This document shows positions 15,106-49,138 of a stretch of DNA of 64,000 nt, piece by piece. Within the stretch, counting starts at the first letter, position 1. Each line of letters begins with the position of its first letter. The stretch spans positions 28,458,001-28,522,000 of the forward strand of contig OX597842.1 of NCBI GenBank assembly GCA_951406725.2. The letters are read 5' to 3'. A model generated the notes under the pieces. That model had not been told where the DNA came from and did no database searches. It saw nothing but the letters and a program-made list of their open reading frames with translations. The translations under genes and the position numbers were made by a program. Source of the stretch: Octopus vulgaris (taxonomy: Eukaryota).

Positions 15106-15188
15106 ATGGATGTAGATAAGATTATAAGCAAGATTCGGAATGGGGACTTTAAAGATGTGAAACGATTTATAAAAAAAATCCTGAAACT
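15106..15188 (+). CDS. Exon 1 (coding), ankyrin N-cap [24 protein letters not shown](NPET)
   Basis: Pyrimidine tract and AAG acceptor just before the ATG, GTAAGT donor at 15189. It is 83 nt, one short of phase 0; one extra A in the A8 run gives FIKKNPET|VNQ. Confidence 0.7.
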
Positions 15189-19112: not shown

Positions 19113-19152
<40 letters not shown>

Positions 19153-20909
19153 TTGATATATTTTATATATCTTCTCTTTCTTCTCTTCAGGTCAACCAAA
19201 TAAATTCATACAGTCAAACCTTCTTAATGGTGGCTTGTGGACAGGGCAGCACAAGTCTAATAGCCTTCTTGATAGAATCTGGAGCCAATATGGACATGAG
19301 TGACAAAGACAAGAATACAGCATTGCATTATGCTGTGGAGAAGTAAGGCTTGAATTAATTAAAATCTTCAGATCTGCTTTTGTTTTGAAATTTTTTGCAA
19401 TTCCAGACAAATTGAATATCCAAAGATACCATAATAGTGGCAGTGTGACACGATAACAACATGATAGTAGTAACCAAATAACATCTTTTTCTCATTTTCT
19501 CCATGAATCCTCTTCATTGAATCACAAAAATCTTTTTCGTTATTTTTGTCAAAACAGATATGATTAGTATGGTGCGTTACACCACCACCAGTGGCCAGGT
19601 TGTCACTCATCTGTCTCGCTTTATGACTACGAAGATGACTCGTGAGTCATCCTATACATACATACATATCATTATATATATAACAAAGTATGGAGATATT
19701 CTTTGAGAGCCAACAGTTCTTAAGATTGACCCATTGTGATTCAGTGCCTTCTCTTCATATTGATTATGGAGAGATCGATCAATTTTTCTCCAAAGAAAAT
19801 GTTATTTGAGATCTAAAGCAACAAGAAAGATTCTCTAGCTTGTTTTGACAGTAAATAATCTGTAAATTTCTTACAGAAATTATTTCTCACCTCCATCTGC
19901 AACTCACTCAACACATTTTGAGATCTATTATATTTTGAATTGTGCTTCATAAGGTCATCTCTGGACAATAAAACATGTTTTGAAGTTCTTATTAGTTTCT
20001 ATAGGTTCTGCAGTCGCAAATTGTTCCAGAATTTTGCACAAACACACACACACCATCATTGTCATCGAATGTTCCTTTTCCATGCTGGCATGGGTGGGAA
20101 GGTTTGATAGGAACAGACAAGTCAGAAGACCACACCAAACACTACTGTCTGCTTAGGTTTGGTTTCTATGGCTGGACGACCTTCCTAACACCAACCACTT
20201 TGCAGAGTGTACTGGATGCCTTTTACATGCCATCCAAACCAGTGAGGTCACCAGTTAATTGCGAGACAAAGACCTCTCGACTGGTTGAGGTGGTGAGGTG
20301 GGGGAGCTAATATTGCTGGAGAGAAAGGTGTCTTGCATTAGAAGAGGGACATGGCTCCTTCAGATGGAGAAGACAGAGGAGGGAAACACTAGGTTAAAAT
20401 CTAGTGTTTGGCCCAAGCAAAGAAAAAAGGAAAAAAAATAGTGCAATAGGTGTGAAACAACATGTAGTAAACGAATATGAAAAAAAAAAATATGGCGAAC
20501 GGGAGGTGGGGAGACGACTCGGAAAATTCAAATCTCACCACTTCCCCGTTCGTCGGCGAATTTTTTGTTCTTCATTTTCGTATTTTACACATTATTTTAC
20601 ACCCGGTACTCTACTTTTGTTCAATTTTTGTGACGGGGCGGGTGGGTGGGGTGCGGACTCGGATGATTCACACGATCCGGTAACCCCACTCGACAACCGG
20701 TCCCAAAAATGAAAACAAAAAGTGTAACAGGTGTAAAACAACATGTAGTTTTCGGATCCTGTGAGATTGATCGTGTGAATTTTCCGAGTCGTCTCCACCG
20801 CCCCTCGTTCGCCAACGTTTTTTTTTTTTACTTATTCTTTTTATATTTTATTTTACACCTATTGCACAATTTTTTTTGCTCGAGTCAAACACTGGAGTTT
20901 AACTTATAA

Positions 20910-21006
<97 letters not shown>

Positions 21007-21630
21007 TATATATAATAAATATTTGTGTGTTTATATATTCATTTATGTGTGTTATATGACCGCCATACTTTACTGTTTCTTTTGGCGGTAAAAATACGCC
21101 TCGTTGCCCTTAACAACAAACTTTCTCTTGCATAGTCTGTTGCTATGACAACATTACATTTGCAGACGTAGTTTTCCCGCCAATTACGACGTGCTGCTGT
21201 TGTTGTTGTTTTTTTAGATTGATGAGAAATCTGCTATCAATTAGTTTGTCTATAATTTTCAGACATTCCATCTTTCGCAAAAGGATTACAATACATTTTT
21301 CAATGTATACCTAATATATAGATACTAACAACGGTACTTAATCCTTGTTTTGTATTGTACACTCGCTGGGATAAAAATATTTATACTTTATACCCTCACC
21401 TATTAATATGTGTATACACACACACGTACACATTTGTTTACTGTGTATTAACGATTATACGTATTTCAGTGGCTCATATTTCTCTGTCTGTCTGTCTCTC
21501 TATATACATATATATACACATACACATATACACATACATGCATATATATATATATAAATATATATATACATACACATATACACCTGTATAATATAATTGA
21601 CTTTGACATTTCAACTAGCGATATATACCG

Positions 21631-21677
<47 letters not shown>

Positions 21678-22756
21678 ATATATATATATAAATATATATA
21701 TATATGCGTGCATATGTATAGGCATACCTACACAACTGGGCCCCACGACGAATTTGTTTCCTTATAACTTTGAGACAAATTGATATTTTTTAATGAAATT
21801 TCTTTGACAAAAATGCTTCAGATGATGAAGATTCCAATTATATCGGAAATTGTTGTAAAAACAAATTTTCAAACGTTGAGGAGTTGACTTTCTCAAAATT
21901 CACCCAAATCCGTTTTGTTTTTCTATAACTTTCAGAAAAGTGGATATTTTGTTTCTGTGAAAATTTCTACAAATCCCTTTCAAATGGTGTAGATTAGGAT
22001 TATATCGGAATTTAACATGAAAAAACTTTAAAAATTTGATGGTTTCACACACATACATACTGACACACATCACGGTTATTTTCCCAAAATTCATCTTTTT
22101 ATTTTCTGGTTTGTGTCAGTGTATATCTGTGCGAATCCACCAATTTTTAAAACATTCTTCATATTAAATTCCGATATAATCGAAATCTTCACCATCTGAA
22201 ACGGTTTTATTGAAAATTTCATTTGAAAATATCTATTTTTTTGGAAAGAAAGCCGACTCGGGTGAACTTTCCTAAATTTCTCTCTCCACCCACCGAAAAG
22301 GTTTTTCTCACAACAAATTCCGATATAATTGGAATATTTGCCATCTGAAGGATATTTGTGAAAGAAATTTCATTGAAAAACATCCAATTTTCTAGAAGTT
22401 ACAAGGAAACATTCGTCTGGGGCACATTTGTGTAGGTTTGCCTCTACATACATATTTGCATATATATATATATATACACACACGAGGCTGTAGTATACAT
22501 AGGTTTTTATGCATTTACTGGAACACGAGTGTATATTTAATGTAATTATTAAGTGAATGTGATGTTTTATGTTTGTTTTTTTTCCTTTCAGCCACAAAAC
22601 TGATGTTGTGGCCTCCTTAGTCTCCAGTGGAGCAAATGTTAATAAGCAGAACTCATGCGGCAACACACCTCTACATCGGGCTGTGAGGAATAACTATAAA
22701 GATGTAGTCAAAGTCCTGTTAAAAAGCAAAGAAAATAACAATTTACAGGTCAGCGA

Positions 22757-22796
<40 letters not shown>

Positions 22797-25700
22797 ATAA
22801 TGATATGTATGTTGGTTTGTGTTATATGTATATGAAACAGTTTATATTTATATGTTTTTAATTAAAAACTTTTCTTCAGCTCACAGACCTGTACATACAT
22901 ACACAAATATACACACACATAAACGCATATATACACAAAAATGCATAAACAAATGATCAGTGAAGATATAAAACACGTATGTATATATAGGTATTTATGT
23001 ATATATGTATGTGCGAGAGTGTATATATATATATGCATACACATATGTGTGTGTGTATAGATACATTATAAATCTCATTTATTTTCCCCTCACCTTCATT
23101 CCACCTGTTTAAATTAATCTGATTCTGTTTCTCTGACATTTTTCATTTTTTTCCTTCTTCCCACAATAAACACCATCTTTAATGTCTTTATTGTTTTTAG
23201 GTTAATCAGGGAAATAATTTTAGTGCAACAGCTCTCCATCTTGCCTGTCTCTATGGACAAATAAACATTGTTGAACTTCTCCTGCAACAGAATGGCATCG
23301 ATGTTAATGCTGTGGAGAACAAAGGTTGGACAGCTCTCCATTTTGCCTGTCAGGAAGGACATACGGACGTTGTTGAACTTCTCCTGCAACAGAATGGCAT
23401 CGATGTTAATGCTGTGGAGAACAAAGTTTGGACAGCTCTCCATGTTGCCTGTCAGGAAGGACATACGGACGTTGTTGAACTTCTCCTGCAACACAATGGC
23501 ATCGATGTTAATGCTGTGACGGAAAATGGTTGGACAGCTCTCCATGTTGCCTGTCAATATGGACATACGGACGTTGTTGAACTTCTCCTGCAACAGAATG
23601 GCTCTGACATCTGTGCTGTGACCAATCATGGTTTCACCCCTCTTCATATTGCCTCTATTCATGGACGCACGGAAGTTATTGAACTTCTCCTGCAACAGAA
23701 TGGCATCGATGCCAATAAGGTGGACGAATTCGGTGACACCCCTCTCCATTGGGCAGTTCGAAAGTAAGTCCCCAATGGATTTGGATTATCCAAATCTGTT
23801 TCTTTAATCTTTGTTTTCTTGTTTCGAGTCATTCATGTCATAATCCCACCATGGGTCGTCATGCTTCACCCCTCTCTCTCTCTCTCTCTCTCTCACTCTA
23901 ATGACACTGTAATCTAACTTCATTAATTAATCATCATAATTGTTGTTGTTGTTGTTGTTACCTGACTGGATTCTTTACTTCATCTCATCCTTCGTTACCT
24001 CAACGTTACAGGTTCAAATCCTCTCCCTTCTTCCTTTCATTCCATGTAAAACACCTCACCCTCCCCCCTCTCTTGAAATTTTCCTCTTTCCTCTGGCCCT
24101 GGGCTAAATGCAGAATCATCCCCTTACTTTGATCCGTTTGTGTTCCAAGTTCAACTGCTGGGCTCAAAATCTGTACCAGTAATATCCAGGGGTTCATTTA
24201 ATAGATTGTCCTCCCTCTTTACTCCTGTTCTTGTGTCTGATTACTGTTGGAAAATATTCAGATAAAATTTACAAGTGTTGATATCTGGACGGTTTCCTAG
24301 TCTTCTGATTGTTTACGGAATATGTGGTGTAATTTTTAATTATGTATCTTATGCAAATAACCTACATCTTCTTTACACTGGTTATGGTAAATCTGGGTTT
24401 TGAGTTTATACCCTTCTTAGAAATTTTATCTCAATATTTCCCAACCTTTGCCTTTTATTAACCCTTACCTTTTTCTACCCTTTTAGGCCCCTCTTTTTTG
24501 TATATTACGAATTACCCTTCCGACCCCTTTCGTTGTATTAACAATTAATATTATCTTAATTTTAATGATTCTTAATACTATTTTAGTTAACAGTATGTAT
24601 GTGTATGTTGTTGGCATCGTTTTTGTGCTCGTGCAAATGTATATGCATGTGTTTGAGAGAGAGAGAGAGAGTGTGTGTGTGTGTGTGTCGTTTGTATGTG
24701 TGTGTACGCTTATATATTAATTACTATGTGCTTGTGCAAATGTATATGCATGTGTTTGAGAGAGAGAGAGGGAGTGTGTGTGTGTGTCGTTTGTATGTGT
24801 GTGTACGCTTATATATTAATTACTATGTGCTTGTGCAAATGTATATGCATGTGTTTGAGAGAGAGAGGGAGTGTGTGTGGGTGTCGTTTGTATGTGTGTG
24901 TACGCTTATATATTAATAACTATGTGCTTGTGCAAATGTATATGCATGTGTTTGAGAGAGAGAGAGGGAGTGTGTGTGGGTGTCGTTTGTATGTGTGTGT
25001 ACGCTTATATATTAATTACTATGTGCTTGTGCAAATGTATATGCATGTGTTTGAGAGAGAGAGAGTGTGTGTGTGTGTGTCGTTTGTATGTGTGTGTACG
25101 CTTATATATTAATTACTATGTGCTTGTGCAAATGTATATGCATGTGTTTGAGAGAGAGAGAGAGAGAGAGTGTGTGTGTCGTTTGTATGTGTGTGTACGC
25201 TTATATATTAATTACTATGTGCTTGTGCAAATGTATATGCATGTGTTTGAGAGAGAGAGAGAGTGTGTGTGTGTGTGTGTCGTTTGTATGTGTGTGTACG
25301 CTTATATATTAATTACTATGTGCTTGTGCAAATGTATATGCATGTGTTTGAGAGAGAGAGTGTGTGTGTGTGTGTGTGTGTGTCGTTTGTATGTGTGTGT
25401 ACGCTTATATATTAATTACTATGTGCTTGTGCAAATGTATATGCATGTGTTTGAGAGAGAGAGTGTGTGTGTGTGTGTGTGTGTGTCGTTTGTGTGTGTG
25501 TGTACGCTTATATATTAATTACTATGTGCTTGTGCAAATGTATATGCATGTGTTTGAGAGAGAGAGAGAGAGAGTGTGTGTGTGTGTGTCGTTTGTATGT
25601 GTGTGTACGCTTATATATTAATTACTATGTGCTTGTGCAAATGTATATGCATGTGTTTGAGAGAGAGAGAGAGATAGTGTGTGTGTGTGTGTCGTTTGTA

Positions 25701-25960
25701 TGTGTGTGTACGCTTATATATTAATTACTATGTGCTTGTGCAAATGTATATGCATGTGTTTGAGAGAGAGAGAGAGTGTGTGTGTGTGTGTCGTTTGTAT
25801 GTGTGTGTACGCTTATATATTAATTACTATGTGCTTGTGCAAATGTATATGCATGTGTTTGAGAGAGAGAGAGAGAGAGTGTGTGTGTGTGTGTCGTTTG
25901 TATGTGTGTGTACGCTTATATATTAATTACTATGTGCTTGTGCAAATGTATATGCATGTG

Positions 25961-25994
<34 letters not shown>

Positions 25995-28900
25995 TGTGTG
26001 TGTGTCGTTTGTATGTGTGTGTACGCTTATATATTAATTACTATGTGCTTGTGCAAATGTATGTGCATGTGTTTGAGAGAGAGAGAGAGAGAGAGTGTGT
26101 GTGTGTGTGTCGTTTGTATGTGTGTGTACGCTTATATATTAATTACTATGTGCTTGTGCAAATGTATATGAATGTGTTTGAGAGAGAGAGAGAGAGAGAG
26201 AGGTGTGTGTGTGTGTCGTTTGTATGTGTGTGTACGCTTATATATTAATTACTATGTGCTTGTGCAAATGTATATGCATGTGTTTGAGAGAGAGAGAGAG
26301 AGAGAGTGTGTGTGTGTGTCGTTTGTATGTGTGTGTACGCTTATATATTAATTACTATGTGCTTGTGCAAATGTATATGCATGTGTTTGAGAGAGAGAGA
26401 GAGAGTGTGTGTGTGTGTCGTTTGTATGTGTGTGTACGCTTATATATTAATTACTATGTGCTTGTGCAAATGTATATGCATGTGTTTGAGAGAGAGAGAG
26501 AGAGAGAGAGAGTGTGTGTGTGTGTCGTTTGTATGTGTGTGTACGCTTATATATTAATTACTATGTGCTTGTGCAAATGTATATGCATGTGTTTGAGAGA
26601 GAGAGAGAGAGAGAGAGTGTGTGTGTGTGTCGTGCGTCTGCTATATTTCTTTATCAATATCGATCACGCAGCAATGTTGGGATTTCATTGGTTAAAATTC
26701 GACGATGCTGGGATTTCATTGGTTAAAATTCGAAGATCCTGGGATTTCATTGGTTAAAATTCTTAAAATAGAGAGGAGGGAGATAGTTAATGGAGAGGGG
26801 AGAAGGTATCGGGGTTCGAGATCAGCGCCTAAACGGTAATGAAACAAGGTTATCTTAGCTGCACATTTCTGAAATCCAAGTTTATCATCCGAAGCAAAGC
26901 AATGAGGAATCGAGTGGAGGCAGGAACCGAGCAAACACTGGTTTATATAGAGATTAGGGGTTTTTCGGGGGGAGGGGGACGATTGGCGTGTTACATAGAA
27001 GAGGGGGAAAGAGAGAGAGAGAAGGGAGGCCCCACGAGGGAGAAATCTCTATGGCAGGACGAGGTTCGAAATAGAAAAAAAACTTAATGAAACAGGAAAT
27101 GCCGAAAACGCGAGGCAGGCTTATATATATAAATATATATATGCGTCCATATGTATAGGCATACCTACACAACTGGGCCCCACAACGAATTTTCTTCCTT
27201 ATAACTTTTAGACAAATTGATATTTTTTAATGAAATTTCTTTGACAAAAATGCTTCAGATGATGAAGATTCCAGTTATATCGGAAATTGTTGTAAAAACA
27301 AATTTTCAAACGTTGAGGAGTTGACTTTCTCAAAATTCACCCAAATCCGTTTGGTTTTTCTATAACTTTCAGAAAAGTGGATATTTTGTTTCTGTGAAAA
27401 TTTCTACAAATCCCTTTCAAATGGTGTAGATTAGGATTATATCGGAATTTAACATGAAAAAACTTTAAAAATTTGATGGTTTCGCACACATACATACTGA
27501 CACACATCACGGTTATTTTCCCAAAGTTCATCTTTTTATTTTCTGTTTTGTGTCAGTGTATATCTGTGCGAATCCACCAATTTTTATAATTTTCTTCATA
27601 TTAAATTCCGATATAATCGAAATCTTCACCATCTGAAACGGTTTTATTGAAAATTTCATTTGAAAATATCTATTTTTTTGGAAAGAAAGCCGACTCGGGT
27701 GAACTTTCCTAAATTTCTCTCTCCACCCACCGAAAAGGTTTTTCTCACAACAAATTCCGATATAATTGGAATATTTGCCATCTGAAGGATATTTGTGAAA
27801 GAAATTTCATTGAAAAACATCCATTTTTCTAGAAGTTACAAGGAAACATTCGCCTGGGGCACATTTGTGTAGGTTTGCCTCTACATACATATTTGCATAT
27901 ATATTTATATATATACACACACGAGGCTGTAGTATACATAGGTTTTTATGCATTTAATGGAACACGAGTGTATATTTGATGTAATTATTAAGTGAATGTG
28001 ATGTTTTATGTTTGTTTTTCTTCCTTTCAGCCACAAAACTGATGCTGTGGCCTTCTTAGTCTCCAGTGGAGCAAATGTTAATAAGCAGAACTCAAGGGGC
28101 GACACACCTCTACATCTGGCTGTGTTGAATAACTATGAAGATGTAGTCAAAGTCCTGTTAAATAGCAAAGAAAATAACAATTTACAGGTCAGTGAATATA
28201 TATATATATGTGTGTGTGTGTGTATAATGATATGTATGTTGGTTTGTGTTGTATGTATATGAAACAGTTTATATTTATATTTTTTTAATTAAAAACTTTT
28301 CTTCAGCTCACACAGACCTGTACATACATACACAAATATACACACACATAAACGCATATATACACAAAAATGCATAAACAAATGATCAGTGAAGATATAA
28401 AACACGTATGTATATATAGGTATTTATGTATATATGTATGTGCGAGAGTGTATATATATATATATGCATACACGTGTGTGTGTGTGTATAGATACATTAT
28501 AAATCTCATTTATTTTCCCCCCACCTTCATTCCACCTGTTTAAATTAATCTGATTCTGTTTTTCTGACATTTTTCATTTTTTCCTTCTTCCCCCAATAAA
28601 CACCATCTTTAATGTCTTTATTGTTTATCTTTTTTAGGTTAATCAGCAAAATAATTTGGGTTGGACAGCTCTCCATGTTGCCTGTCTCTATGGACAAACA
28701 AACATTGTTGAACTTCTCCTGCAACAGAATGGCACTGACATCTGTGCTGTGACCAAGCAAGGTTTCACCCCTCTTCATATTGCATCTCTTCATGGACGCA
28801 CGGAAGTTGTTGATTTTCTCCTGCAACAGAATGGCATCGATGCCAATAAGGTGGACGAAGACGGTGACACCCCTCTCCATCTGGCAGTTCTAAAGTAAGT

Positions 28901-33900: not shown

Positions 33901-36900
33901 ATGATAAAAGAACACCCTTACTGGAAGCCGTGTCTGCAGCCCACATCGGAATAGTCCACAAACTAATCACGTGCGGTGCAAATATGAATGCCATCGACAA
34001 GGATGGCAATAATTGTTTGCATATTGCAGCAGAGAAAGAGGAATTTTGTTCTGAGAAGGAACATATTACCATTTTAGATGAGGTAAGTTTTTAAATTGAT
34101 TGTGAATGTGTGTGTGTGGTTGGCATTAGATAGGGCATCCAACCACAGAAACCATGCCAAAACTGGCAATTGGACCCTGAGCTGCTCTGCAGTTGGCCAG
34201 CCCTTGCTGAACCATTGAACCCACACCAGCATGGAAAATGGACATTAAATGATGATGAGGAGGATGAGTAGAAGTGTGAGCTTGTGTGTGTGTGTGTAAG
34301 ATAAAGAGAGAGAAATAGAGAAACGGGCAGACATTGCTTGCCATGTCTATTCACTCCCATCCACCTCTCTTCCATTAGTATTAAGTAATCCAGTCAATCC
34401 AGATAACCCTAGTTATATTATGTAACTAACTATATTCCATCTCCTTTCACCCTCGAAGGCATGCTCTCTCCCCTGTAAAGGAGGTAACCCATCTTGTTGG
34501 CTATATAAACACAGCCATCACAGTGTGAAGGAAAGGTGACCAATGACAAAGAGGAGACATTCCCAAATAACAATGAAACAGGGAGGAGGAGAGGTCTGTG
34601 GGACATGATAGACGATAACCTTTATAATGCTGGTGCCATGATAAATGCATCCAGACCATTCTGGGAAGAATTCTTCCCGAAACGACTCTTTATCACACAT
34701 CTTGCACACAATGTGTATCCACTGGTTTCCTGTAGACATGTCATCACAATGTTGAATGTTAGAACACTAGAGAACGGATACAATGAACGAAGGTCCTTGG
34801 TGTGTTTTCCTGTATGTAGGTTGTGTATGTTCAACTACATATTTATCTGTCTCTCTCTCTCTCTCGCTCTCTTTCTATATATATATATATATATATTTAT
34901 ATATAAACAAATGCATCAACATGTATCCATCGGGAGATCTGATGGTATATATTGTCTACTGTTTCATAATTCAATCGACTCTTTGATTCCCGTATAAATA
35001 AAGGTCACTACTGATGTGTGACTCTATTTCAGACATTTGATGATCATATGTAAATTGTAGTAATGTCTACTTTGGTGAGAAGAAGCCACTCTTGCAGTCA
35101 GCTACCCACCCAACTGGAATTGTCTAACAGTTTGAGCAGTTTATTAACTATAATGTGTTGGTGTGCTGCCTCAACTGTGACACTAATTCTTACTTCCTTT
35201 ACTTCACCTTCATTATCCAAAGAAGTTTCTTTATTAATTATGGAAACGTTGTTATTTTTGGATATGTCTGTGTGGTGTTGCTTTTGTTGTTGTGTCTGTT
35301 CTAAGTATTCTCAGTTCTCATGTAACTTGTTTGCTGTCATGTTGTTGTGTTATATTTATATATACAATACTCCTCCATATTTCTTGTGTGATGGCCATTT
35401 ATGGATTCACCAAGCTAGTTGAATAGATAGTTTGGTGTGTTCTAATATTTGTGATGTTTGTTCCATTATATTCCATATATTTGACTTGATGCTATGATTT
35501 GGTTTTAAATTGTTTTTTATTGAATATCTTGTGATATTTGTGATTGGCAAATGATTATTTACGCATTAATTACCAATAAACTTGATGTTAATCAGTAATG
35601 TTTGTTCTGTTTAATATAATGACCATATATATAAAATATGTCATAATGTTGAGAATAGACTAAAAACAAATGAAAATGGGAAATGGATTCAATTAGAGAT
35701 GATGTCGGAACTTAATATTGTGCAATCAGTTTAAGCGCTGGAGATACAAACTATTTGTATACGTAGTTGAACTGTTGTGTAATTTGGGTATCTACGAAGT
35801 ATATTTGTGAAATATTGTAATCATCATTTTATACTTTGTCATTTGTAGTGCTGTGCTAAGCTTGGGTTGCCGATCGAAAAGAGGCTCTCTGGTGTAGCAG
35901 TCGCTGGCTATCTAGCCCACCAGGGGGCCAACTTGTACAGGAAAAATAATGAGAATGTATCTCCATTGGACCTCATTGAGGATGCAGATTTGAAAGAAAA
36001 ATTTAAAGAATTATTCCTGCCACAAACAGTAAGTATTCATTGGCAGTGACAGTTTATTTTCTATTTTGTATATAATCATGTTTATGTTTGTTTAATTTTA
36101 ATTCTACCAATACATTATACTGCCATAGTGTCTTGATCAAAGGCCACACAACAATAGTATGAAGAACAATAAACAAAATGCAGTTGTTATGTGATCCAAT
36201 GAAGAGCACTGTTTGGGTTGGTAGTTGTACCTCACTGTCTACCACCACCCATCTACCTTTCTTAGTTCCCTATTTTAAAGATTTGTGACCAATAAGAAAA
36301 TGTAGAACTAAACAGTGAAGTGAATGAACAGATTTTGAAGTTGTTACATAAAAACAAATGGAATTTATCTGTCTACCAACATGTTCTCTCTCTTCTCTGT
36401 TCCAATCAGTTCATTATTATGAAAGGTTTCGTAAGAAAATAAACTACACACCCAAACAGTGTGTGTATATATATCATCAACATCATTATCATCATTGCTT
36501 AACGTCCGTTTCCATCCTGGCATGAGTTGGATGGTTTGAAAGGGAGCCCGCCAGAAGTCTACACCAAACTTCTGTCTGTTTTGGCATGCCCAGCAGAGTG
36601 GACTGAGTAACACCAGCGCAGGCAAGGCCAGTTTTGGAATGGTTTTTACAGCTGGATGTCCTTCCAAATGCCAGCCACTTTACAGTGTGGACTGGATGCT
36701 TTTTATGTGGCACCAGCACTGGCAGGGTCACCAAGTGTATATACACACACACAGACACACACACATATTTCTGTTAATATTGCTAGAACACTGACACACA
36801 TCTTCACAGAATAAAATTGCCAGGAAACATAAATCGTTCTGGTAACACCTATACCATTCTTAGTCTTTTAGGCTTCTTGGTCACATTAGACTCCTGTATT

Positions 36901-39900: not shown

Positions 39901-42900
39901 AGGATGGTAAATGTTGATGTGCTTTTATGTCGCAGAAAAATTCCTCTTGTGACTGGTTTAAATCTTCACAAGCAATTTCTGAAAAGCTTGAGCAAGCATA
40001 GACCATCGCACCACCTCCAAGGTAATGAAAGAGGTCTTTGTGAAAGAAAATGTAGCCAGCCATGCTAAAAACACCATTGCACAGTAAAGAATGTGTCCAG
40101 GTTTAACAAATGAGATTGGAATCAGTACTTTTAACTTAGGAATCAAAAATAGTGAACTTTATTGCATAAACTGTGGGTATTTTTAAACAATAATTTGTAT
40201 CTCGATTTAAATCTGTCATGGTTCATGGAAGAGGATATCCTCAGACCAGTTTGCATCCCTTTTTCATCTGGTATTGAGTCATGATTTAAGGGACCTACAA
40301 TATGTAACTTCAGGTGTGTATCAGGTGGTGAATGACGAAGAGCTCAATTTATCACACCTGTCCTTATAAGAAGCTAAACAGTATGCACATAGCTCAGTAG
40401 AAGGTGAATCTAACTCGTTTGGGTTTTGATCCAATCAACTGAGGCAAATAAAATTGTTTTGGAGGAACACATCTGAAGTTGATAAGATGTAGATCAATGA
40501 ACATGGACTCACCTATAACAAGGGGCAGGTTTGTATGCAGGGCAAACCTAGACTGAAGTGTTTTGCTAAAGAACTTTACACATTGCCTTGTCCAGGAATT
40601 GAAACCGCAATTTTACTCTATGAGTCCAAAAGCCTAACAATTTAGCCATGCACCTCACTCTGGTCAGTCTGGTGTTTCATAATATTCTGTACTGTAAACA
40701 TAAAACAAACATGTAATATTTGTTAGAAATGAATGTTATAGGTGGGATGTGTTTTATGTTTTTTCCACAGATGTATGCTTTGTGAAGTGAATGAAGCCAG
40801 CATGGAGTTACAACCCTGTGCACATACTGTTTTATGTGAAGATTGTAGCAAAATTCAACTTAAAAGATGCCCCAAGTGTAAAACATGTATAGAAAGCAAA
40901 AGGAGAGTTGGTAAGAATATGATTTGATGATCTGTCTGTTTGTCACATGACATTAGGGAATGGAATAATGTTGTATCGACCCAGATCTGTCATAATCTGA
41001 CAGACGTATGATAAAAGATGTCCCAGGTGTCTTTTCTCTTTGATAGTATATCCATGACTACACCCACTGAATATTGTCTTTATCCAAGTAGGAAACCTGT
41101 CCCACATCAAAAGAGTACTGTCTGCAACATAAGACTAATACGTTTTACTGAAATATAAATGAAATATCAATAAATCTCCAAGGTCCCATCAGTAAACATC
41201 AACTTTTTATATTCAGTTGTCAGCTTTTATATGAGGTTAATGATTTATAAGTATCTTGGGAAACTGATAATTAAGGACAACAGTACTTCCTACAACATCA
41301 CAGTCAGCTTTGTAATGTAAGAATTTCAATGACAAAATCTCAACTGAGAGTTTAAGGATCTGACTCTTAGCGAGTCTTATATATTCTTGAGAATGAATTC
41401 TAGTGTCCCATTTCAGATATAACTCCTTTGCAATAATGTGTAGATAAACAGTTTTAAGTTAAGGAGGTTTTATACAAATGTAATGTTTCAGGATACCTGT
41501 TATCACTTTCTGCTCCACCTGTGTAGAACCAATCATTGCTCACCTGGAAAAAGAAAAAGCTGCTTATTAAGGAGGATGAATGACATTGAAATATCTTCAG
41601 ATCTTTCCTGAATCAGGTGGTATTCTGGTGAAGTGTGATGTGGGCAGTTAAAATTAAAGATTACCAACAGTAACATATAAAAATGAGGCTGGGGTATGTT
41701 TATCCTTCCTGAAGCAATGTGTCATGCCTTTGTGGCCAGATCTTTGAAGACCAGTTTGGTTGACACTGGAATTTAGCAGAAGATGAGAAGAATATTGGTT
41801 AGTGAAGGTTCGAGATGAGAGGACAATGGCATGTCATATGACCAGCACAGACATAACAAAGGAAAGACAAAACTAAGAGAAAAAGAGTGTTATGAAGTGA
41901 TAACTAAGTGAGAGAATTTCAGAATTGTTAGATTAGTATATAGGATGTCTTAATAGAAAGATGAGATTTAGAAAGGTTTGCCTATTTTGTTGTGGTTCTA
42001 AATATTGAACTATTATATAGTAACAGCTTAGAAAGTGTTGACCGAAAGCATAGTGGTCACCAATTGACTATTGATGATATGAATGCCTTACAAAAATGGA
42101 ATATAGATTATTAAAAGAGACAAAGAAATTTTACTATGAAGTATAAAACTTTGAAATGCTTATTTCAGTGTGTCCAAAGTCTGAAGAAAAAGCAGTCAAG
42201 ATGGTTGCAGAATCTGTTGGTGAGTATAAAATAACTGTAATTGATTTCTATAAATTTTACCTTCACCTGAGATATATTATTTGTGTGAATGACTGAGAAC
42301 AGGTTCCATTCTTAATTTCCAATTCTTATTTCAGAATGTCCAAAGTGTAAAGGAAAAGTAAAATCTTTTGGTGAGTATAAAATAACTGTAATTGATTTCT
42401 ATAAATTTTACCTTCACCTGAGATATATTATTTGTGTGAATGACTGAGAACAGGTTCCATTCTTAATTTCCAATTCTTATTTCAGAATGTCCAAAGTGTA
42501 AAGGAAAAGTAAAATCTTTTGGTGAGTATAAAATAACTGTAATAAATTTCTATAAATTTTATCTTCACCTGAAATATATTATTTGTGTGAATGACTGCGA
42601 ACAGGTTCCATTCTTAATTTCCAATTCTTATTTCAGTGTGTCCAAAGTCTGAAGAAAAAGCAGTCCAGACGGTTGCAGAATCTGTTGGTGAGTATAAAAT
42701 ATCTGTAATTGATTTCTATAAATTTTACCTTCACCTGAGATATATTATTTGTGTGAATGACTGAGAACAGGTTCTATTCTTAATTTCCAATTCTTATTTC
42801 AGTGTGTCCAAAGTCTGAAGAAAAAGCAGTCCAGACGGTTGCAGAATCTGTTGGTGAGTATAAAATAACTGTAATAAATTTCTATAAATTTTATCTTCAC

Positions 42901-43190: not shown

Positions 43191-43228
<38 letters not shown>

Positions 43229-46200
43229 GCATCTACATGTAGCAGCCTCTGTACTTTCCAGTCGTGTAACAACATGAATTGTATTTAAAATATTGATATT
43301 ACAGAAATTTAATAAAATGTCCAGCAGTGTTGGCTCTGTTGCTAAAATGGTTAAATTAGAAAAAAAAAACAATAGAGTTAATATTGTCTTTTGAATGAAG
43401 GAAGAAAAACATTTTGTTGTTTAATGGTAAACAGGTGAGTTAATGACAGTGTTTGTTTGTTGTACATTTTCAATAAGTTTACTGATTATTGTTGTTGATG
43501 TTCTTGTTGAACAAGATGGTTAAGTTGAAAGCTTACAAGTGTGATCACCCTGTCTTCTTTTTCACTCTTAGTAAATCTATCATTACATCCATTAAACGAT
43601 GTCTTTGTCCAAGTAAGAAGCTTTGGTCTGCTGCTGAGACAATTGCTCTCTCTCTCTCTCTCTTCTCTCTCCTTAAGATGGACACTGGTTGCAAGATACA
43701 AAACAATCGATGTTATTGTCCTCATCATTTACAGTCTGCTCTCCTTGCTTCCATGTAATGGATGGGTGATCACTGTCCAAGTCAGTTCTTATTCAGAGTT
43801 ACTGTCCCCCTTGACTGCTTGAGAAACACATCTCCCTTAAACATTCCACCTTTTCTATGGTGGGATGCCCTCCCCAACACCAACCACTTCATAAAGAGTC
43901 CTGAGTACATTTTAATGTGGCACAAGCACTAGAAAGATTTTCATGTGTCCAACATTGAAACTGGAATAGCTGTAGGTTGCACACAATCAGTCACTTGGTT
44001 TGTGCTTGTTATGGGGATCGGCAGATTTATGAGAAGAAATTACTCAGGCGAAATCACCTCAGAAGACATTCATGGATGACATAAAAATGCTAACAAGAGA
44101 TCCAAAGTATATGCAATCAGTCCTAGATAGATTGGATGGACTAATTAATTGCTCAAGAATGCTGTTTGAAACAAATAATGAATGCATTCTGACATTTGTG
44201 AAAGGTCAACAGAAGCAAGTGAAGTTCAAAATAGCAGGAGAAACGATGCGAAAGGTTAAAGAGTAACTTGTAAAACGTTTTGGACTGTGGTAGACGATCT
44301 CATTGTCCGATAAGAGTAGAGGCATTGATGTCATTGAAGAAACCGAGGATGGGCAATAAGCATTTGCCAAGTCAAAACTTCTGGGCAAAAACAAGATTTG
44401 GTGCTTGAAGTTTGATCTATATCACCATCTTGATAATATATTCTTAAATATCACTTCTTTTGTACCATTTCAGATGTTTTTCCTTTGCGATAATCTGTGT
44501 ATGAACATTTGCATGTTGTTAAAGATGTTTTGTGCAAGTATACAGTGTTTTAGGATACTTGCTATCACTTTCTGTTTCACCTGTGTAGAACTAATCATTG
44601 CTCATCAGGAAAGAAAAGCATTTCATTAAGGAGTCCTTAAATATTTCCTGAATCAGATGAAATTCTGGTGAACTGTGAGTTGCATAGTTTAAAATTAAAG
44701 ATTAAAAGCAGCAACGTTTGACAAAGATAACAGGTGTGACATGAGTTTGTGTCAAGGTCGTTGATGACCAGCTTGGTTGACATCAGAATTAAGCAAAAGA
44801 TGAGGGGAATGTTGATTAAGTGAAGTCCAGTGGTGAGGGGACAATGCCATGTCATAGGTTTAGCATGGATATAAGAGAGAAGAAAGATAAAAGGTGTTAA
44901 CATGTGATCATTAAATAAGATGATTGCAACATTGTTAGATTAAGTAGGATGTCTTAATAGAAAAAGGAGGCTTAGGAAGGTCAGTCTATTTTGTTATGGA
45001 CCTAAATATTGAGCCATTATATAGGACCACTGTAGGAAGTATAAAAGTGTCAACCAAACCTATAGTGGTCAGAAGTTGTCCATTGATGATAGGAATGTCT
45101 TACAATAATAAAATATAAACCATTAACAGAGATCGGGAAATTGTGCTATGAAGTGTAAAATTTGGAAATATTTATTTCAGAGTCTGTAATGGTAGAGGAG
45201 AAGCATCTTCATAGGGTGTCCCAAAAGTTGGCAGGTAAATGGATGGAACTTGGTGAGTATAAAATACCCAATTAATTTCTATAAATTTTACTTTCAGCTA
45301 AACTTTTGTTTGTTTGAATGACTGAGAACCGGTTCCATTCCTAATTTCCAATTGAAAGTTTAGCTATAAAGTAAAGCTATCACTGAAATTTCATAAAATA
45401 TCTACAGACGTCAGCACGGTTGTAAAATGTATAAATTAGAAGGTCCAGTAGAGTTAATACTATCGTTTGTAAAAGGGGACTCAAAAATATTGTTGTTTAA
45501 GAGTAAACAGGTGAATTAATGACAATGTTTTTGCTTGTTTACACTTTTAGTAAGTTTACTAGTAGAGTGTTGTTGTTGATGTTTATTTCGGCAGATATCT
45601 GCCTTAATCTGGCAGAATTAAGGGGAAAGGGTTCCAGATGTGCCATCGCTCTTTCTCTTGGGTGAAGAGGACCACATTATCAAATGTAACCTTTTTAAAA
45701 TGAGAGTGTGCATTGTGTGGGACATGTTGTCATCTCTCCCCTGGCCAGTCTGTTTTTCTATATTTATTGTAATTCTTTAGTCCCAGGTCAACATATATTT
45801 CCTGTCTCTATAGAAGACAGGCCCCATTGTTGATTGTGTTCATGGCTGGATTGAACTCAGCATTGTAAGTTAATGAAACACTCATTTATATTAGAAAAAA
45901 AAGAATCTCAACAGAAAATTCAAACTCAACTTGATCTTGTTTCTCAATTGAAATCATTTCACTCTCCTTTACATTACAAATGTCACGTGGAAAGGCATGA
46001 ACATCACAATATCCCATTTCCCCTTCTCCGACAGTTTAACACAACATAAAATATCATTTATACAATGCTCCTATTATTTACAGCAATGTCTTCTACCTCC
46101 CTATGGTACCTATATACATCTAGATAGAGTGAAGCATAGAGAAATGTCTTTACCAGGTACATTGAGCGGTGCTGGGGATTAGATTTGAACCTTTGATCCC

Positions 46201-49138
46201 TGACTCAAGGGATCATGACAATATCCCCTGAGTCAGCTGATAGAAACCATCATCATCATCATTTGACGTCTGTTTTCCATGCTGGCATGGGTTGGACTGT
46301 TTGACTGAGGTCTGGAGAGCCAGTGGCTGCACCAGGCTCCAATCTGATCTGGCAGAGTTTCTACAGCTGGATGCCCTTCCTAATGCCAGCCACTCCGAGA
46401 GTGTAGTGGCTGCTTTTTATGTGTCACCAGTACAGGAGCCAGTCAGGTGGACCTAGCATCAGTCATGTTCGGATGGCCTTTTTACGTGCCACCAACACAA
46501 GGAGTCAGTCAGATGACACTGGCATCGACTACATTCGGATGATGGCTTTTATGTGCCACCAGAACGGGGGCTAGTCATGGGGCACTGGCCACAGCTGCAA
46601 TTTTGGTTTTACTTGACTCAACAGGTCTTCTCAAGCATATCATGTCACCCGATGCATTAAGGATACTCTTAAATGGGCCGGACATGCAACACTGGCATCG
46701 GCCATGGCTGCGATCTCCCTTTAGTTGCTGGGTCTTCTCAATCACAGCATATTTCCAAAGGTCTCGGTCTCCAGCCATTGCCTCTGTGAGGCCCAATGTT
46801 CAAAGGCCATGCTTCACCATCTCATTCCATGTCTTCCTGGGTCTACCTCTTCCACAGCTTCGTTCTACAGTTAGGGAGTGGCACTTCCTCACACAGTTGT
46901 CCTCATCCATACGTAACACGTGACCATACCAGCGTAGTCGTCTCTCTTGCACACCACATTTGATGCTTCTCATGTCCAACTTTCCTCTCAGGGTGTTTAC
47001 ACTGTGTCGTGTATGCACACAGACATTCCACATCCAGCGGATCATACTACCTTCATTTCTGTCAAGCCTACGCATGTCCTCAGCAGTCATGGCCCATGTT
47101 TCACTGCCATGTAGCATGGCAGTTCACACTCAGAAATGATTTATCTAATTTAAGAAAGGACATCATCTACAACATTGCCAGCTTGCTATACCTCTGGGTG
47201 TCATACAAAATATACCAGTCATATACTGGGATAAAATGAATCCACTAACACCAGGTCCATTATCATCATCACCTTACATCCATTTTTCTAAGTTTGTAAT
47301 GGTCAGACGACTTCTCCCAGAGTTGTTGTGGTCCTTTGTCCAGTTTGATCGCTTGTTTCTTTCCACTTGAATTCCAGGCACTTCTTTACCCAGATTTCAT
47401 CTGCCATGTCCCTTCTATATCTATACCATTATCTTTTTTCTTGTACACTATCACAGATTCTTCTGAGATCCAGTTATTTGGCTCCAAGTTTTCAACACAT
47501 TAACATTACACTTCTAGTGATGTCTGCTCACCTCATTTCCTGGCAGTTTCCATTGCATCTTTCACATTCTACGTAACATTGCATGAGGTGTATTTGTAAA
47601 GTGCAATCTCTCCCTCATATGGAGACAGAATCCCTTAGTTGCCAGTAGACATAACAACTCCCTGTACATTTTTCATCTCGTTTTCCTTCTAACTACTGTG
47701 CTTTCAGAATAGTTTCCTCTACTTCTAATTCTGTCCTTTAGGTAACAGAAACTATCAACTATGTCTTTCATACTTGTTCCTATGAACTATTCCTGTATAT
47801 TTGCCACATACAAAGTCCTTCCTCAGCCCTAACCTTAACCTGCCCTCCCTGTAAACTTGCTTGTTTGTGAATGCAGTGATTCTATCAGGACCCGAGTGTT
47901 GTAGGTGTATGGTGTAGATGTTGGTAAAACTCTTCTCATTGCTTTGTTTACTCTAGGGCCTCTCCTGTATTAGATTCTTTGAAATTGTGGCCTTGATCCA
48001 ATGAAAGAAGTTCTTGTTATAAGTCATGAATCCAAAAACCTTAAGCCAGTGCCCTCTATAATATGTGATATTTACCTAACAGTATTATATTTTTACTTTG
48101 GGGTGGTTGAAATCATTCAGGTACACAATCCCCACTTTTGAGATATTTCTGAATGTTGATAATTTTTAAATATTTATTAATCATAGGTGGAAAGACATCG
48201 CAAATGACTATTTCAGGCATTGATCACAGGACGTTATCAAACGACTGAGATTGTATTCCTCCAAAGAGTCTCTGGAGTAACGTTACTCAACAAGGTGTGC
48301 AGGCTGGAGATTTGGGGTCTCTCCAGGTCAAGTGACTGCTTCTCTGCATTGAGAATTCACAGCTCAGTAATCCTGGCATGTGATTAAAATATCACAGGAA
48401 AGAACCACAAGAGGGATTCTTCAAGCTGAGCCAACCGACAGGAGACCTAGGGGTAGAGCAAGAATGAAATGGTTGGATGATATCCATAGTTTCAATTGGC
48501 CATGCTTGGAAATCCTTTCAGAAATTCTAATGAAGGTTGCCTCTGATAGGATCATATGAAGGAGGTGCCTGAAGACTCTACCCCTACAACCCTCCTATGA
48601 ATAGAGGGCAGAGAAAATGGACGGATGGATGAAATTATCTGTTGGTGGTCTTTGTCAATTCTTTAGGCTCTCATACACTGCTACCCACACAAACACTTCT
48701 CCTGCCAGTTGTTCACCAGACATTTTCTCATGTGTAATTTTCAATTCTTTAAAATATTCTTCTCCTTCTCCAGCCTTTATTTCAAATTGTTTGATATTTT
48801 TGTCAACATCTTTAGAAATAGATAACAATGTCTTCTAATTTCCCTGTTTCTTAAGTATTTCTCATTCTTCTATTCACATAATTTCTTTGTCCTAATTAAT
48901 ACAGCCTACAGTACACAGGTTTTATATTATCGTTAATGCTGTTGCAATTATTTCTTATTTCTTTTGCAGGAAGGGAATTAGGAATTCCACAAAATGACAT
49001 GGACAACATCAGGCAGGACTATCCTCTTGACGTTGTGGAACAAGGCTTCCAGATGCTGCTCAAATGGCAGCGAGTAATGATCCAGAGAAACGTACACTTC
49101 AAATATTAAAAGAAGCTCTTGAAAGAACTGAATGTTAG
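15106..49138 (+). CDS. 17-exon gene: ankyrin repeats + Mind-bomb-like RING + micro-exon repeat linker + death domain (~800 aa; frame discrepancies, possibly a young pseudogene)
   Basis: Exons with canonical AG/GT ends: 15106-15188, 19191-19342, 22592-22748, 23201-23763, 28031-28187, 28638-28894, 31194-31230, 33873-34082, 35849-36028, 40771-40910, 42169-42219, 42335-42370, 42486-42521, 42637-42687, 42803-42853, 45181-45252, 48970-~49138. Phases match for exons 2-9 and exons 10-17. The last ankyrin ([23 protein letters not shown]) and the RING resemble the C-terminal half of MIB1/MIB2. Confidence 0.85.
15345..15900 (-). mobile_element. Highly degenerate LINE RT fragment
   Basis: [13 protein letters not shown]...SINSGMP on the minus strand. 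Confidence 0.6.
17400..17760 (-). mobile_element. CR1-like 3' remnant
   Basis: [17 protein letters not shown]; related to 51460-51895. Confidence 0.6.
17915..18160 (-). mobile_element. 3' end of a second RTE-type LINE family with two C-terminal C2H2-like fingers
   Basis: [21 protein letters not shown] and [22 protein letters not shown]. Its 3' UTR (ccccctcgttatcgagtatggccattg on +) is shared with 18430-18480. Confidence 0.7.
18410..18853 (-). mobile_element. Short non-autonomous element sharing that LINE 3' end, embedded in (TACA)n
   Basis: Shared tail; (atac)n tracts on both sides. Confidence 0.55.
19191..19342 (+). CDS. Exon 2, ankyrin repeats ([19 protein letters not shown]...[13 protein letters not shown])
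   Basis: ttcag acceptor, gtaagg donor, phase 0-2, TALH ankyrin motif. Confidence 0.92.
20390..20906. mobile_element. MITE with terminal inverted repeats, TA-flanked
   Basis: taggttaaaatctagtgtttg...gagacgactcggaaaattca versus tgaattttccgagtcgtctc...caaacactggagtttaactta. Confidence 0.78.
21715..22450. mobile_element. MITE with long TIRs (second copy at 27152-27887 inside the duplication)
   Basis: tgtataggcatacctacacaactgggcccc... versus ...ggggcacatttgtgtaggtttgcctctaca. Confidence 0.8.
22592..22748 (+). CDS. Exon 3, ankyrin repeat ([34 protein letters not shown]...NNLQ)
   Basis: ttcag/gtcagc sites, 157 nt, phase 2-0, GNTPLH motif. Confidence 0.93.
23201..23763 (+). CDS. Exon 4, 5.5 tandem 34-aa ankyrin repeats (102-nt units)
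   Basis: tttag/gtaagt sites, 563 nt, phase 0-2, repeated TALHx[22 protein letters not shown]. Confidence 0.95.
24619..26633 (+). repeat. ~100-bp minisatellite, ~20 units: invariant ~70-bp core + variable (GA)n(GT)n
   Basis: Core cgtttgtatgtgtgtgtacgcttatatattaattactatgtgcttgtgcaaatgtatatgcatgtgtttg. Confidence 0.97.
28031..28187 (+). CDS. Exon 5, duplicate of exon 3
   Basis: 157 nt, same splice context, 10 nt differences from exon 3. Confidence 0.93.
28638..28894 (+). CDS. Exon 6, duplicate of exon 4 with three fewer ankyrin repeats
   Basis: 257 nt = 563 - 3x102, phase 0-2, tttag/gtaagt sites. Confidence 0.93.
30040..31090. repeat. Compound (TA)n(TATG)n(TG)n microsatellite
   Basis: Direct reading. 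Confidence 0.97.
31194..31230 (+). CDS. Exon 7, 37-nt ankyrin second helix ([13 protein letters not shown])
   Basis: Long pyrimidine tract plus cag, gttagt donor. Phase 2-0 bridges exons 6 and 8 exactly. Confidence 0.85.
32090..33172 (+). mobile_element. Degenerate RTE LINE, AP-endonuclease and linker region
   Basis: [37 protein letters not shown]...KKFANVL...VVGEKCV, with stops and frameshifts. Confidence 0.88.
33873..34082 (+). CDS. Exon 8, ankyrin repeats ([20 protein letters not shown]...[14 protein letters not shown]...LDE)
   Basis: aag acceptor, gtaagt donor, 210 nt, phase 0-0. Confidence 0.92.
35849..36028 (+). CDS. Exon 9, MIB-like terminal ankyrin ([36 protein letters not shown])
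   Basis: tgtag/gtaagt sites, 180 nt open frame. Ends in phase 0 whereas exon 10 needs phase 2. Confidence 0.88.
36478..36735 (-). mobile_element. RTE-tail-related short element (similar pieces at 20054-20290 -, 34115-34265 +, 56101-56240 -)
   Basis: (cat)n + taacgtccgtttccat...gcatg...gttggatgg...ctggatg.ccttcc matches the RTE 3' end. Confidence 0.8.
38400..40060 (-). mobile_element. Highly degenerate CR1/L2-group LINE
   Basis: [26 protein letters not shown] and a DFNYP endonuclease remnant. Confidence 0.65.
40771..40910 (+). CDS. Exon 10, C3HC4 RING finger (CMLC...[12 protein letters not shown]...RCPKC)
   Basis: ccacag/gtaaga sites, all eight Zn ligands present, spacing typical of MIB/IAP-type RING-HC. 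Confidence 0.93.
42169..42853 (+). CDS. Exons 11-15, five phase 1-1 micro-exons (51, 36, 36, 51, 51 nt) separated by four near-identical 115-nt introns
   Basis: Each is flanked by ttatttcag and G|gtgagtataaaat. Peptides: [29 protein letters not shown] x2, [17 protein letters not shown] x2; no stops. Confidence 0.85.
43990..44420 (+). mobile_element. Degenerate non-LTR RT fragment (RLE-type clade)
   Basis: FMDDIKML...[15 protein letters not shown]...FKIAGETM...VKRFGLW, with stops. Confidence 0.6.
45181..45252 (+). CDS. Exon 16, N-terminal part of death domain ([25 protein letters not shown])
   Basis: tttcag/gtgagt sites, 72 nt, phase 1-1, L..V...L...W.EL pattern of death-domain helices 1-2. 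Confidence 0.85.
46248..47122 (-). mobile_element. RTE LINE 3' fragment with tail
   Basis: LHGSETWA...RRLRWYGHV...GRGRPRKTW, 3' UTR and (cat)n at 46248. Confidence 0.93.
47260..47900 (-). mobile_element. Older degenerate RTE fragment
   Basis: Decayed similarity to VVDSFRYLG through the 3' end, with a (cat)n tail. Confidence 0.55.
48190..48632 (+). mobile_element. Degenerate LINE 3' end with (GGAT)n tail
   Basis: [11 protein letters not shown]...[13 protein letters not shown] remnant. Confidence 0.55.
48970..49138 (+). CDS. Exon 17, remainder of death domain ([32 protein letters not shown] / [21 protein letters not shown]), frameshifted near 49072
   Basis: ttgcag acceptor and LG...I..D.P....EQ..QML.KW motif. 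The T...L..AL helix is in a shifted frame; the unshifted frame stops at TAA 49107-49109. Confidence 0.85.

Follow-up and report, generated by a model that had tools for sequence, protein, structure and literature searches.

An octopus gene family combining the MIB2 ankyrin region and RING1 with a spliced linker and a death domain

The gene analyzed here, in a window of 64,000 nucleotides of the Octopus vulgaris genome (contig OX597842.1), is a member of a gene family found in octopus, with at least 87 loci, in which the ankyrin region and first RING (RING1) of MIB2 are joined to a death domain (DD) through an alternatively spliced linker. We give an even chance to the reading that intact members of this family are intracellular sensor-adaptors rather than ubiquitin ligases; the copy in the window is frameshifted as assembled. 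Because the DD replaces the working end of the enzyme and the ankyrins change fast, the members are likely to be sensors or adaptors and not ordinary ligases.

As listed in Table 1, the gene has 17 exons with GT-AG splice sites, from an ATG at 15106 to a paralogue-type stop at 49170–49172, and a model that reads through the frame breaks encodes 812 amino acids with 15 TPLH-type motifs, an N-cap and a degenerate last repeat. Pfam scans of the exons placed ankyrin repeats in six exons, a zf-C3HC4_3 match at 40772–40909 (E = 3e-8) and a Death match at 48969–49103 (E = 7e-4), the last of which fell under the cut-off, since frameshifts and an intron interrupt the domain. In order, 15 canonical ankyrin repeats with their two caps are followed by a single RING, then by five phase-1 microexons and last by a DD divided between two exons. 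Both Pfam and the exon model thus uphold the combination of ankyrins, RING and C-terminal DD given in a preliminary description made from the sequence, although the end it gave, at 49138, comes from a stop read in a shifted frame.

Table 1. Exons of the gene, in window coordinates
Feature	Position	Strand	Basis or remark
Exon 1: start codon and ankyrin N-cap (homologue of MIB2 first repeat)	15106..15188	+	Met also opens paralogue proteins P0013 and P0041
Exon 2: ankyrin repeats	19191..19342	+	Pfam, gene model, MIB2 comparison
Exon 3: ankyrin	22592..22748	+	Pfam, gene model
Exon 4: array of 102-bp (34-aa) ankyrin units, surface positions variable	23201..23763	+	Pfam
Exon 5: duplicate of exon 3	28031..28187	+	Internal duplication, 94-97% identity including introns
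Exon 6: duplicate of exon 4, shorter	28638..28894	+	Pfam
Exon 7: 37-nt ankyrin helix exon	31194..31230	+	
Exon 8: MIB2-homologous ankyrin	33873..34082	+	Pfam, MIB2 comparison
Exon 9: MIB2-type ankyrin tail; one surplus base at end as assembled	35849..36028	+	
RING-HC exon, MIB2 RING1 homologue	40771..40910	+	47% identity, same phase-1 donor
Five symmetric phase-1 microexons	42169-42219, 42335-42370, 42486-42521, 42637-42687, 42803-42853	+	
Death domain exon 1, phase 1-1	45181..45252	+	
Death domain exon 2	48970..49172	+	Three 1-base gaps; premature stop 49107-49109; paralogue-type stop 49170-49172

The gene is derived from MIB2 and has lost the MZM/REP region and the terminal RING. A two-RING MIB gene on contig C26 matches it exon by exon, with seven introns identical in position and phase, and a MIB-type ankyrin region followed by RING1 is present in the gene; these shared introns and the RING1 homology confirm the MIB origin proposed earlier. 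Among the folds listed for the predicted structure of a paralogue, the ankyrin domain of MIB1 (8v0e) had the highest query TM (0.54). MIB_HERC2 (PF06701) has 10 matches in the genome and none on C29, the contig of the gene, and none of six exons encoding the MIB2 N-terminus had a match over 65 kb of upstream sequence. The Notch-ligand-binding N-terminus is accordingly absent, as had been stated, and an ordinary MIB orthologue is ruled out. The terminal coiled-coil RING is gone as well, the gene having one RING only, with the DD exons following the phase-1 intron after RING1. MIB2 itself is on C26; C13 carries a MIB1-like gene. Other octopus loci (ANK-RING1-RING2) keep the terminal RING where the family has linker and DD. 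A simple stepwise history from MIB2 through ANK-RING-RING to ANK-RING-DD found no support in a 36-row tree (built without MIB1, and with five protein rows that skip a stretch of exon 8), on which the DD label takes nine changes, at least four of them forced, and the ANK-RING-RING loci nest among DD types.

Of 104 exon-9 matches, 87 are followed on their own strand by a DD no more than 40 kb downstream (controls, 7 and 4); a RING separates the two in 42 of these pairs, and a sample of 20 from the remaining 45 showed one in 18. The family therefore comprises at least 87 ankyrin-tail/DD loci, or about 90 or more copies, mostly on two contigs; the architecture is not single-copy, and the suspicion of an expanded family hidden under “MIB2-like” labels proved right, “ankyrin-3-like” being used for it too. 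RING–DD exon joints occurred in three runs from three studies, which were judged RNA-like from their contigs (none of the listed runs is recorded as RNA), and were absent from a DNA run; intronless retrocopies on contig C1 also show the RING joined to the DD. These results demonstrated, at the level of the family, the splicing of RING to DD that had been assumed.

Gene models are open in three Octopus species. Word-based searches named homologues only in O. vulgaris, O. sinensis and O. bimaculoides, as did 10 of 10 named profile matches among the best 150 of 104,703, a set flooded by long ankyrin proteins; the range of the family may therefore extend to squid, cuttlefish and other molluscs. 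An Atlas search gave a top feature score of 0.85, which we treat as leads only, and no usable match to the RING–DD part. Pfam detected no NACHT or NB-ARC domain in the exons or the paralogue proteins (NACHT has at least two matches elsewhere in the genome), and its scans showed no B-box, the RING being internal. We found no description of the family in the literature, though its genes may appear in supplements, for instance where cephalopod genome papers tabulate expanded families; the main text of PMC4199593 contains neither “ankyrin” nor “MIB”.

The exon chain had been described as phase-compatible throughout; as assembled, it carries five one-base breaks, and translation ends after 31 amino acids. 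In exon 1 an A8 run (15171–15178) breaks the frame where the upstream paralogue has nine A and the downstream one seven, and in exon 9 a surplus base near 36027 is missing from both neighbour paralogues. The last DD exon has three single-base gaps, near 49072, 49136 and 49144, that are seen in 0 of 20 paralogous exons and lead to the stop at 49107–49109. Apart from these indels there is no in-frame stop in 812 codons, and when the 203 columns are ranked by variability the three gaps occupy ranks 1, 7 and 26 (post hoc P about 0.003), as a collapsed consensus would give. The breaks may be real, since no base inserted at 49071–49073 is reported for the DNA run X2; we consider consensus errors more likely than real lesions.

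By intron position and homology, the RING that was kept is MIB2 RING1, and the DD stands where the catalytic RING was. Human MIB1 RING1 has no ligase activity (bioRxiv 2024.03.01.582834), both RING1 and RING2 of MIB1 are inactive according to the literature, and MIB2 does not need RING1, a RING1 mutant keeping activity (PMC7815719). Among 38 family RINGs, 12 miss a zinc ligand and 26 have them all, and five have all five E2-contact features. This copy retains eight of eight ligands and three of five E2-contact features, with lysine at both the hydrophobic and the arginine position. Since RING1 was kept, the catalytic RING was replaced and 12 of 38 copies are broken, ubiquitin-ligase activity of the family appears doubtful, and the ligase step of the preliminary description is not sustained. 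Activity is nevertheless possible, because the RING is conserved in the five closest paralogues (pN 0.035, pS 0.059) and three E2-contact features remain here. In one subfamily the RING ends in CPICR with all five features, unlike octopus MIB2 RING1. In most members RING1 is probably a spacer.

The array exons range from 86 to 323 amino acids in 34-residue steps, with near-invariant framework residues and varying surface residues. Repeat number and surface residues differ among copies, in agreement with the claim of an expanded and variable array. In pairwise counts among recombining paralogues, which are not independent, the terminal ankyrin repeats gave pN 0.165, pS 0.101 and intron 0.026 (20 exons; pN at or below pS in 2% of bootstraps), and the DD, diversified at many positions, gave 0.146, 0.101 and 0.023 (16 exons), where pN does not exceed pS significantly (7% of bootstraps). 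Compared with their flanking introns, ankyrin and DD exons are ∼6-fold more diverged. Over all 67 repeat units pN and pS were equal (0.261 versus 0.257), with 0.507 versus 0.521 at binding-surface codons.

The five microexons (42169–42853) were absent from the preliminary description. Their flanks are common to DD exon 1, and EKAVQTV, a motif of the LC8 type, is encoded by the final two; PMC3078936 gives the client pattern as [D/S/E]-K/R-x-[T/V/I]-Q-[T/V]. The motif occurs 20 times in 1443 linker residues and not at all in 11755 other residues (shuffled mean, 0.12); in its strict form it is absent from 19 of 34 proteins. The linker is disordered in a paralogue model (pLDDT below 50), and O. 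sinensis isoforms vary in microexon number. Complex prediction with LC8 scored 0.38 against 0.02 for the best control (runs 0.49, 0.38 and 0.04), a weak pass with partner pLDDT of 41–50 and contact agreement of 31%, a type of pass also produced by 5 of 78 solved pairs and by every one of the four mismatches that passed; the score may reflect memory of solved LC8–peptide complexes. In the sensor-adaptor reading, LC8 is a likely dimeriser of family chains.

The DD, cut by the premature stop in this copy as assembled, is recognized in paralogue P0013 (PF00531, E = 1.7e-12, positions 3–83), whose predicted model is helical. Its profile matches the death domains of Fas, RIPK1, ankyrin-3, TNFR1 and PIDD, and no donor with a claim to be the clear single parent was found. 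FADD lies 85 kb from MIB2 and was ruled out as the exon donor because its DD is unsplit. Five DD copies at C26:12.8–12.9 Mb have the same intron.

We propose that the variable ankyrin surface would bind foreign or altered cytoplasmic proteins. Two chains would be paired by LC8 dimers docked on their linker motifs, which would make up for the dimerisation lost with the coiled-coil RING, and the death domains so clustered would bring in a DD adaptor of the FADD or RIPK1/IMD type and trigger caspase or NF-kB signalling. An immune function of the family is putative. More tentatively, octopuses might possess a repertoire of about 100 intracellular immune receptors made from two MIB2 parts dispensable for Notch signalling, an NLR equivalent without an NTPase, in which shuffled hypervariable ankyrins would detect, the threshold for oligomerisation would depend not on a NACHT switch but on splice-tunable LC8 sites copied from a DD exon, and the diversifying DD would signal.

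The model first put forward, an active sensor, ligase and adaptor whose RING ubiquitinates ankyrin- or DD-bound substrates, would fit the eight intact zinc ligands of this copy, the conserved RING of five close paralogues and the CPICR subfamily with its full set of E2-contact features, and LC8 pairing could give the dimer that RING ligases need; it is unlikely, however, given a RING homologous to one that is inactive or dispensable in mammalian MIB1/2, a ligand missing in 12 of 38 copies and the two lysines noted here. We regard as improbable that the proteins are decoys or dampers of DD signalling, which would occupy FADD/RIPK1-type platforms or absorb pathogen proteins aimed at MIB2 or death domains and send no signal of their own. 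The non-catalytic middle of MIB2 was kept, and mammalian MIB2 acts on RIPK1 and cFLIP (PMC7815719); a DD diversified at many positions is also odd for an adaptor with one fixed partner. MIB2 contacts cFLIP, however, via the N-terminal region that the family lacks, and variable ankyrin arrays suit recognition more than inhibition.

Another reading, quite improbable, holds that the family expanded by largely neutral birth and death in regions prone to recombination and that this copy recently became a pseudogene. The five frame breaks, the stops and broken RINGs of other copies, the retrocopy arrays and an overall repeat pN near pS agree with it, but framework residues are near-invariant, coding exons diverge ∼6 times more than adjacent introns, models are open in three Octopus species, and this copy has no stop in 812 codons besides its indels, with DD gaps at variable columns. 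The clustered protocadherin expansions of octopus serve neural wiring. By that precedent, and with a parent gene that works in Notch signalling and many splice isoforms, the family could be a non-immune diversity system, such as neuronal or developmental cell identity set by paralogue choice and microexon splicing; a cytoplasmic architecture with a death domain, and repeat-number and surface variation like that of fungal NLR ankyrins (PMC4986451), make this very improbable.

Intracellular immune recognition in cephalopods is poorly known, and a family with variable ankyrin surfaces and a DD is a direct candidate for it. If the sensor-adaptor reading is true, it would reveal how the conserved ankyrin face of MIB can be used, and likewise RING1, whose part in MIB1 has no explanation, and would provide a natural counterpart to engineered ankyrin binder libraries.

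Ankyrin-1/2/3, ANKDD1, DAPK and NF-kB p100/p105 also combine an ankyrin array with a C-terminal DD, but they lack this RING, and the ankyrins of the family come from MIB2. Unlike TRIM proteins, the gene has an internal RING and no B-box, and unlike NLR/STAND receptors it has no NACHT or NB-ARC. The arthropod “mib1-like” Atlas clusters, of about 400 amino acids, and the octopus ANK-RING1-RING2 loci share MIB-type ankyrins and RING without MZM/REP, with no DD listed for either. MIB2 and MIB1 share with the family the homologous ankyrin region and RING1 and the seven intron positions and phases, and the MIB1 ankyrin domain 8v0e is the best whole-chain fold among those listed; the family, in contrast, lacks MZM/REP and the terminal catalytic RING and adds the microexon linker and DD, and where MIB2 is one copy it has about 90 or more with variable repeats. 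Multivalent LC8/DYNLL clients carry similar motifs in a disordered linker (PMC3078936), whereas in the family motif number is set by microexon copies and splicing, and binding is putative. The fungal NLRs of Podospora (PMC4986451) resemble the family in near-identical ankyrin repeats, repeat-number variation, variable binding-surface positions and an attached signalling domain; the octopus family differs in having no NACHT/NB-ARC switch, N-terminal repeats, a DD as effector and an independent origin from MIB2.

The window (C29:28458001–28522000) carries a gene of 17 exons, all bounded by GT-AG introns. Its read-through model, in which the frame breaks are bridged, encodes 812 aa: an N-cap, 15 ankyrin (ANK) motifs of TPLH type and a last repeat that is degenerate, followed by one RING, then five microexons and, split over two exons, a death domain (DD). 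Exons 3–4 are duplicated as exons 5–6 with 94–97% identity, introns included. Homologues that match the RING exon at full identity are Octopus vulgaris proteins named “MIB2-like” or “ankyrin-3-like” (Pfam Ank, zf-C3HC4_3 and Death). The ankyrin-RING-DD domains claimed in the preliminary description were recovered, but not a phase-compatible chain: as assembled, the gene is out of phase, and translation ends after 31 aa.

Joints between exons 8 and 9, exon 9 and RING, RING and microexon 1, a microexon and DD exon 1, and DD exons 1 and 2 were found in sequencing runs X1, X3 and X16 (three studies; RNA status guessed), and none of the five in DNA run X2. Every joint is its own contig, whose source may be any paralogue. 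Tandem arrays on contig C1 hold intronless copies spanning exon 8 to DD exon 2 and full of stops, indicating retrocopies of a spliced message; these independently support RING-to-DD splicing in the family. At the family level, the DD exons are thus spliced to the RING exon, as proposed. Microexon number varies among O. sinensis isoforms.

We weighed whether the five breaks of 1 base each (one in exon 1, one at the 3′ end of exon 9, three in DD exon 2) are assembly errors or lesions of a pseudogene. The exon 1 break lies in a run of eight A (9 and 7 in the neighbouring paralogues), and exon 9 ends with one surplus base relative to both neighbours and to the RNA joint. The three DD gaps are common to none of 20 paralogous exons. 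When the 203 columns are ranked by variability over 16 close paralogues, with four distant loci left out, the gap columns take ranks 1, 7 and 26 (post hoc P about 0.003). Indels aside, no nonsense codons were found in the gene. Run X1 carries an inserted base in all depth at 49071–49073 (99.9 + 65.1 of 165), X2 has none listed there, and contigs of paralogues also align on this stretch. Assembly error is judged likelier than a pseudogene.

A MIB gene on contig C26 encodes MIB-HERC2 domains and two RINGs and is therefore MIB2. Seven of its introns have counterparts in the window gene at equal position and phase: those following the N-cap (phase 0), exon 2 (phase 2), exon 3 (phase 0), exon 8 (phase 0), exon 9 (phase 2) and RING1 (phase 1), plus the one preceding exon 8 (phase 0). 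With the 47% identity between the window RING and MIB2 RING1, this establishes the proposed Mind-bomb ancestry. The interval from the DD of the preceding paralogue to exon 1 yielded no MZM/REP domains, in line with the claimed absence of the MIB N-terminus, and an ordinary MIB orthologue was rejected on this ground. Where MIB2 continues past the phase-1 intron into its terminal RING, the octopus family has microexons and DD. Four other loci keep ANK-RING1-RING2 and lack a DD; no MIB-HERC2 match was found near them, and they form a second, probably ligase-competent branch. A tree does not place them as simple intermediates between MIB2 and the DD forms, and the family seems to have swapped or lost its tails repeatedly. 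Since microexon 1 and DD exon 1 are alignable and share flanks, the linker likely derives from copies of DD exon 1 that became shorter. The DD profile matched Fas, RIPK1, ankyrin-3, TNFR1 and PIDD, with no clear parent among them.

Features in the window and elsewhere in the assembly
Position	Strand	Feature
15106–49172	+	Window gene, from ATG
2–220, 2619–3441, 52342–53234, 60009–60920		LINE-type element fragments
5049–6974	+	642-aa open frame, reverse transcriptase domain (PF00078), LINE-type element
24624–26628		103-bp unit, ~20 copies, in intron separating duplicated ankyrin blocks
49778–50024, 50734–51109	-	AACCCT-rich telomere-like repeat 600 bp past gene, then helicase-like fragment (no Pfam match; resembles PIF1/Helitron by motif)
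53365–54159	-	Broken C2H2 zinc finger array
C1:216.93–216.97 and 102.71–102.73 Mb (L041–L043)		Two tandem sets of processed pseudogenes; units about 1 kb, intronless, many stops, spacing 1–3.6 kb; 23 exon-9 matches
C26:1.31 (L048), C20:45.05 (L052/L125), C27:36.35 (L053), C30:3.17 Mb (L054)		MIB2 derivatives, RING1 + terminal RING
C26:2.42 Mb (L044:6507–7058)	opposite to MIB2	Single-exon FADD (DED + DD), about 85 kb from MIB2; may be chance
C26:12.81–12.93 Mb (L045–L047)		Five tandem genes, related two-exon DD, low-complexity upstream exons; no exon-9 match nearby
C4:0.14–0.30, C6:135.3–135.6, C7:0.2, C9:0.08, C2:215.4 Mb		Dispersed members close to contig ends

Genome searches returned at least 127 exon 9, 144 DD exon and 59 RING exon matches. 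After removal of 23 and 19 matches in the two C1 retrocopy arrays, a DD lay within 40 kb downstream in 87 of the 104 exon-9 matches among those listed (controls, 7 and 4), a count of pairs and not of intact genes; 63 of the 87 are on C29 and C31. Of the 87, 42 have a RING between exon 9 and DD, as do 18 of 20 drawn from the other 45. A large expansion hidden under “MIB2-like” labels is thus upheld, the labels including “ankyrin-3-like”. All named relatives among the matches listed come from three Octopus species. Literature searches, judged on their listings, gave no account of an octopus ANK-RING-DD family, and neither did the available passages of PMC8195603 and PMC4199593.

Array exons, 24 of which were compared, span 86 to 323 aa when complete, in increments of 34 aa. 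Across 67 repeat units, framework residues hardly vary, whereas turn and first-helix positions rise to 2.2–3.4 bits, in keeping with the variable arrays first described. These positions are the ones randomised in DARPins. The last 51 codons of 20 ankyrin exons gave pN 0.165, pS 0.101 and adjacent intron 0.026; 16 DD exons gave 0.146, 0.101 and 0.023, with 3′ UTR divergence of 0.058 over 110 nt and 0.116 over 300 nt. With all repeat units pooled, pN equals pS, and so it does at the surface codons. Diversifying selection is suggested at most. The variation pattern resembles that of fungal NLR ankyrins, as far as the available part of PMC4986451 describes it.

A ubiquitin ligase step had also been claimed. 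In the available parts of the sources, human MIB1 transfers ubiquitin through RING3 alone, its ANK-RING1-2 portion is an inactive monomer, and Notch signalling can do without ANK, RING1 and RING2 (bioRxiv 10.1101/2024.03.01.582834); MIB2 requires its second RING and its activity survives RING1 mutation (PMC7815719). The part kept by the octopus family is exactly the dispensable one. A zinc ligand is missing in 12 of 38 family RING exons, and five of the 38 have all five E2-contact features, as listed for MIB1 RING3 and mapped by motif position; the window copy has three. The first E2-contact position rests on the general RING pattern. Conservation of the RING among the five closest paralogues counts against an inactive RING; its RING1 type and the broken copies speak against the ligase step.

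The LC8 motif is given as [D/S]-K-x-[T/V/I]-Q-[T/V]-[D/E] in the part of PMC3078936 available. Linker residues, 1443 in total, contain 20 instances of a relaxed form, spread over 15 of 34 related proteins, and none lies in 11755 residues outside the linker (shuffles average 0.12). The structural model of a paralogue, with a mean pLDDT of 83, shows the linker as disordered (pLDDT below 50). A predicted complex of octopus LC8 with a paralogue peptide, its microexon part identical to the window gene's, scored 0.38, and the highest of three controls reached 0.02. Contact agreement was 31% and partner pLDDT at least 41. The modelling lends weak support to LC8 binding; the score may possibly reflect memorised solved complexes.

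We give about even chances to a mode of action in which the variable ankyrin array would be the sensor, the RING a spacer, chain pairing would be tuned through LC8 and the DD would be the signal output. Such proteins would bind a ligand and LC8, engage partners and have an immune role. The whole genome holds at least two NACHT matches among 25 candidates. Measured by defining features, the octopus family belongs to neither the NLRs, the TRIM proteins nor the MIB ligases; its working mode would be similar to that of NLR-type repeat sensors, the part of the earlier NLR/TRIM-like logic that this reading retains.
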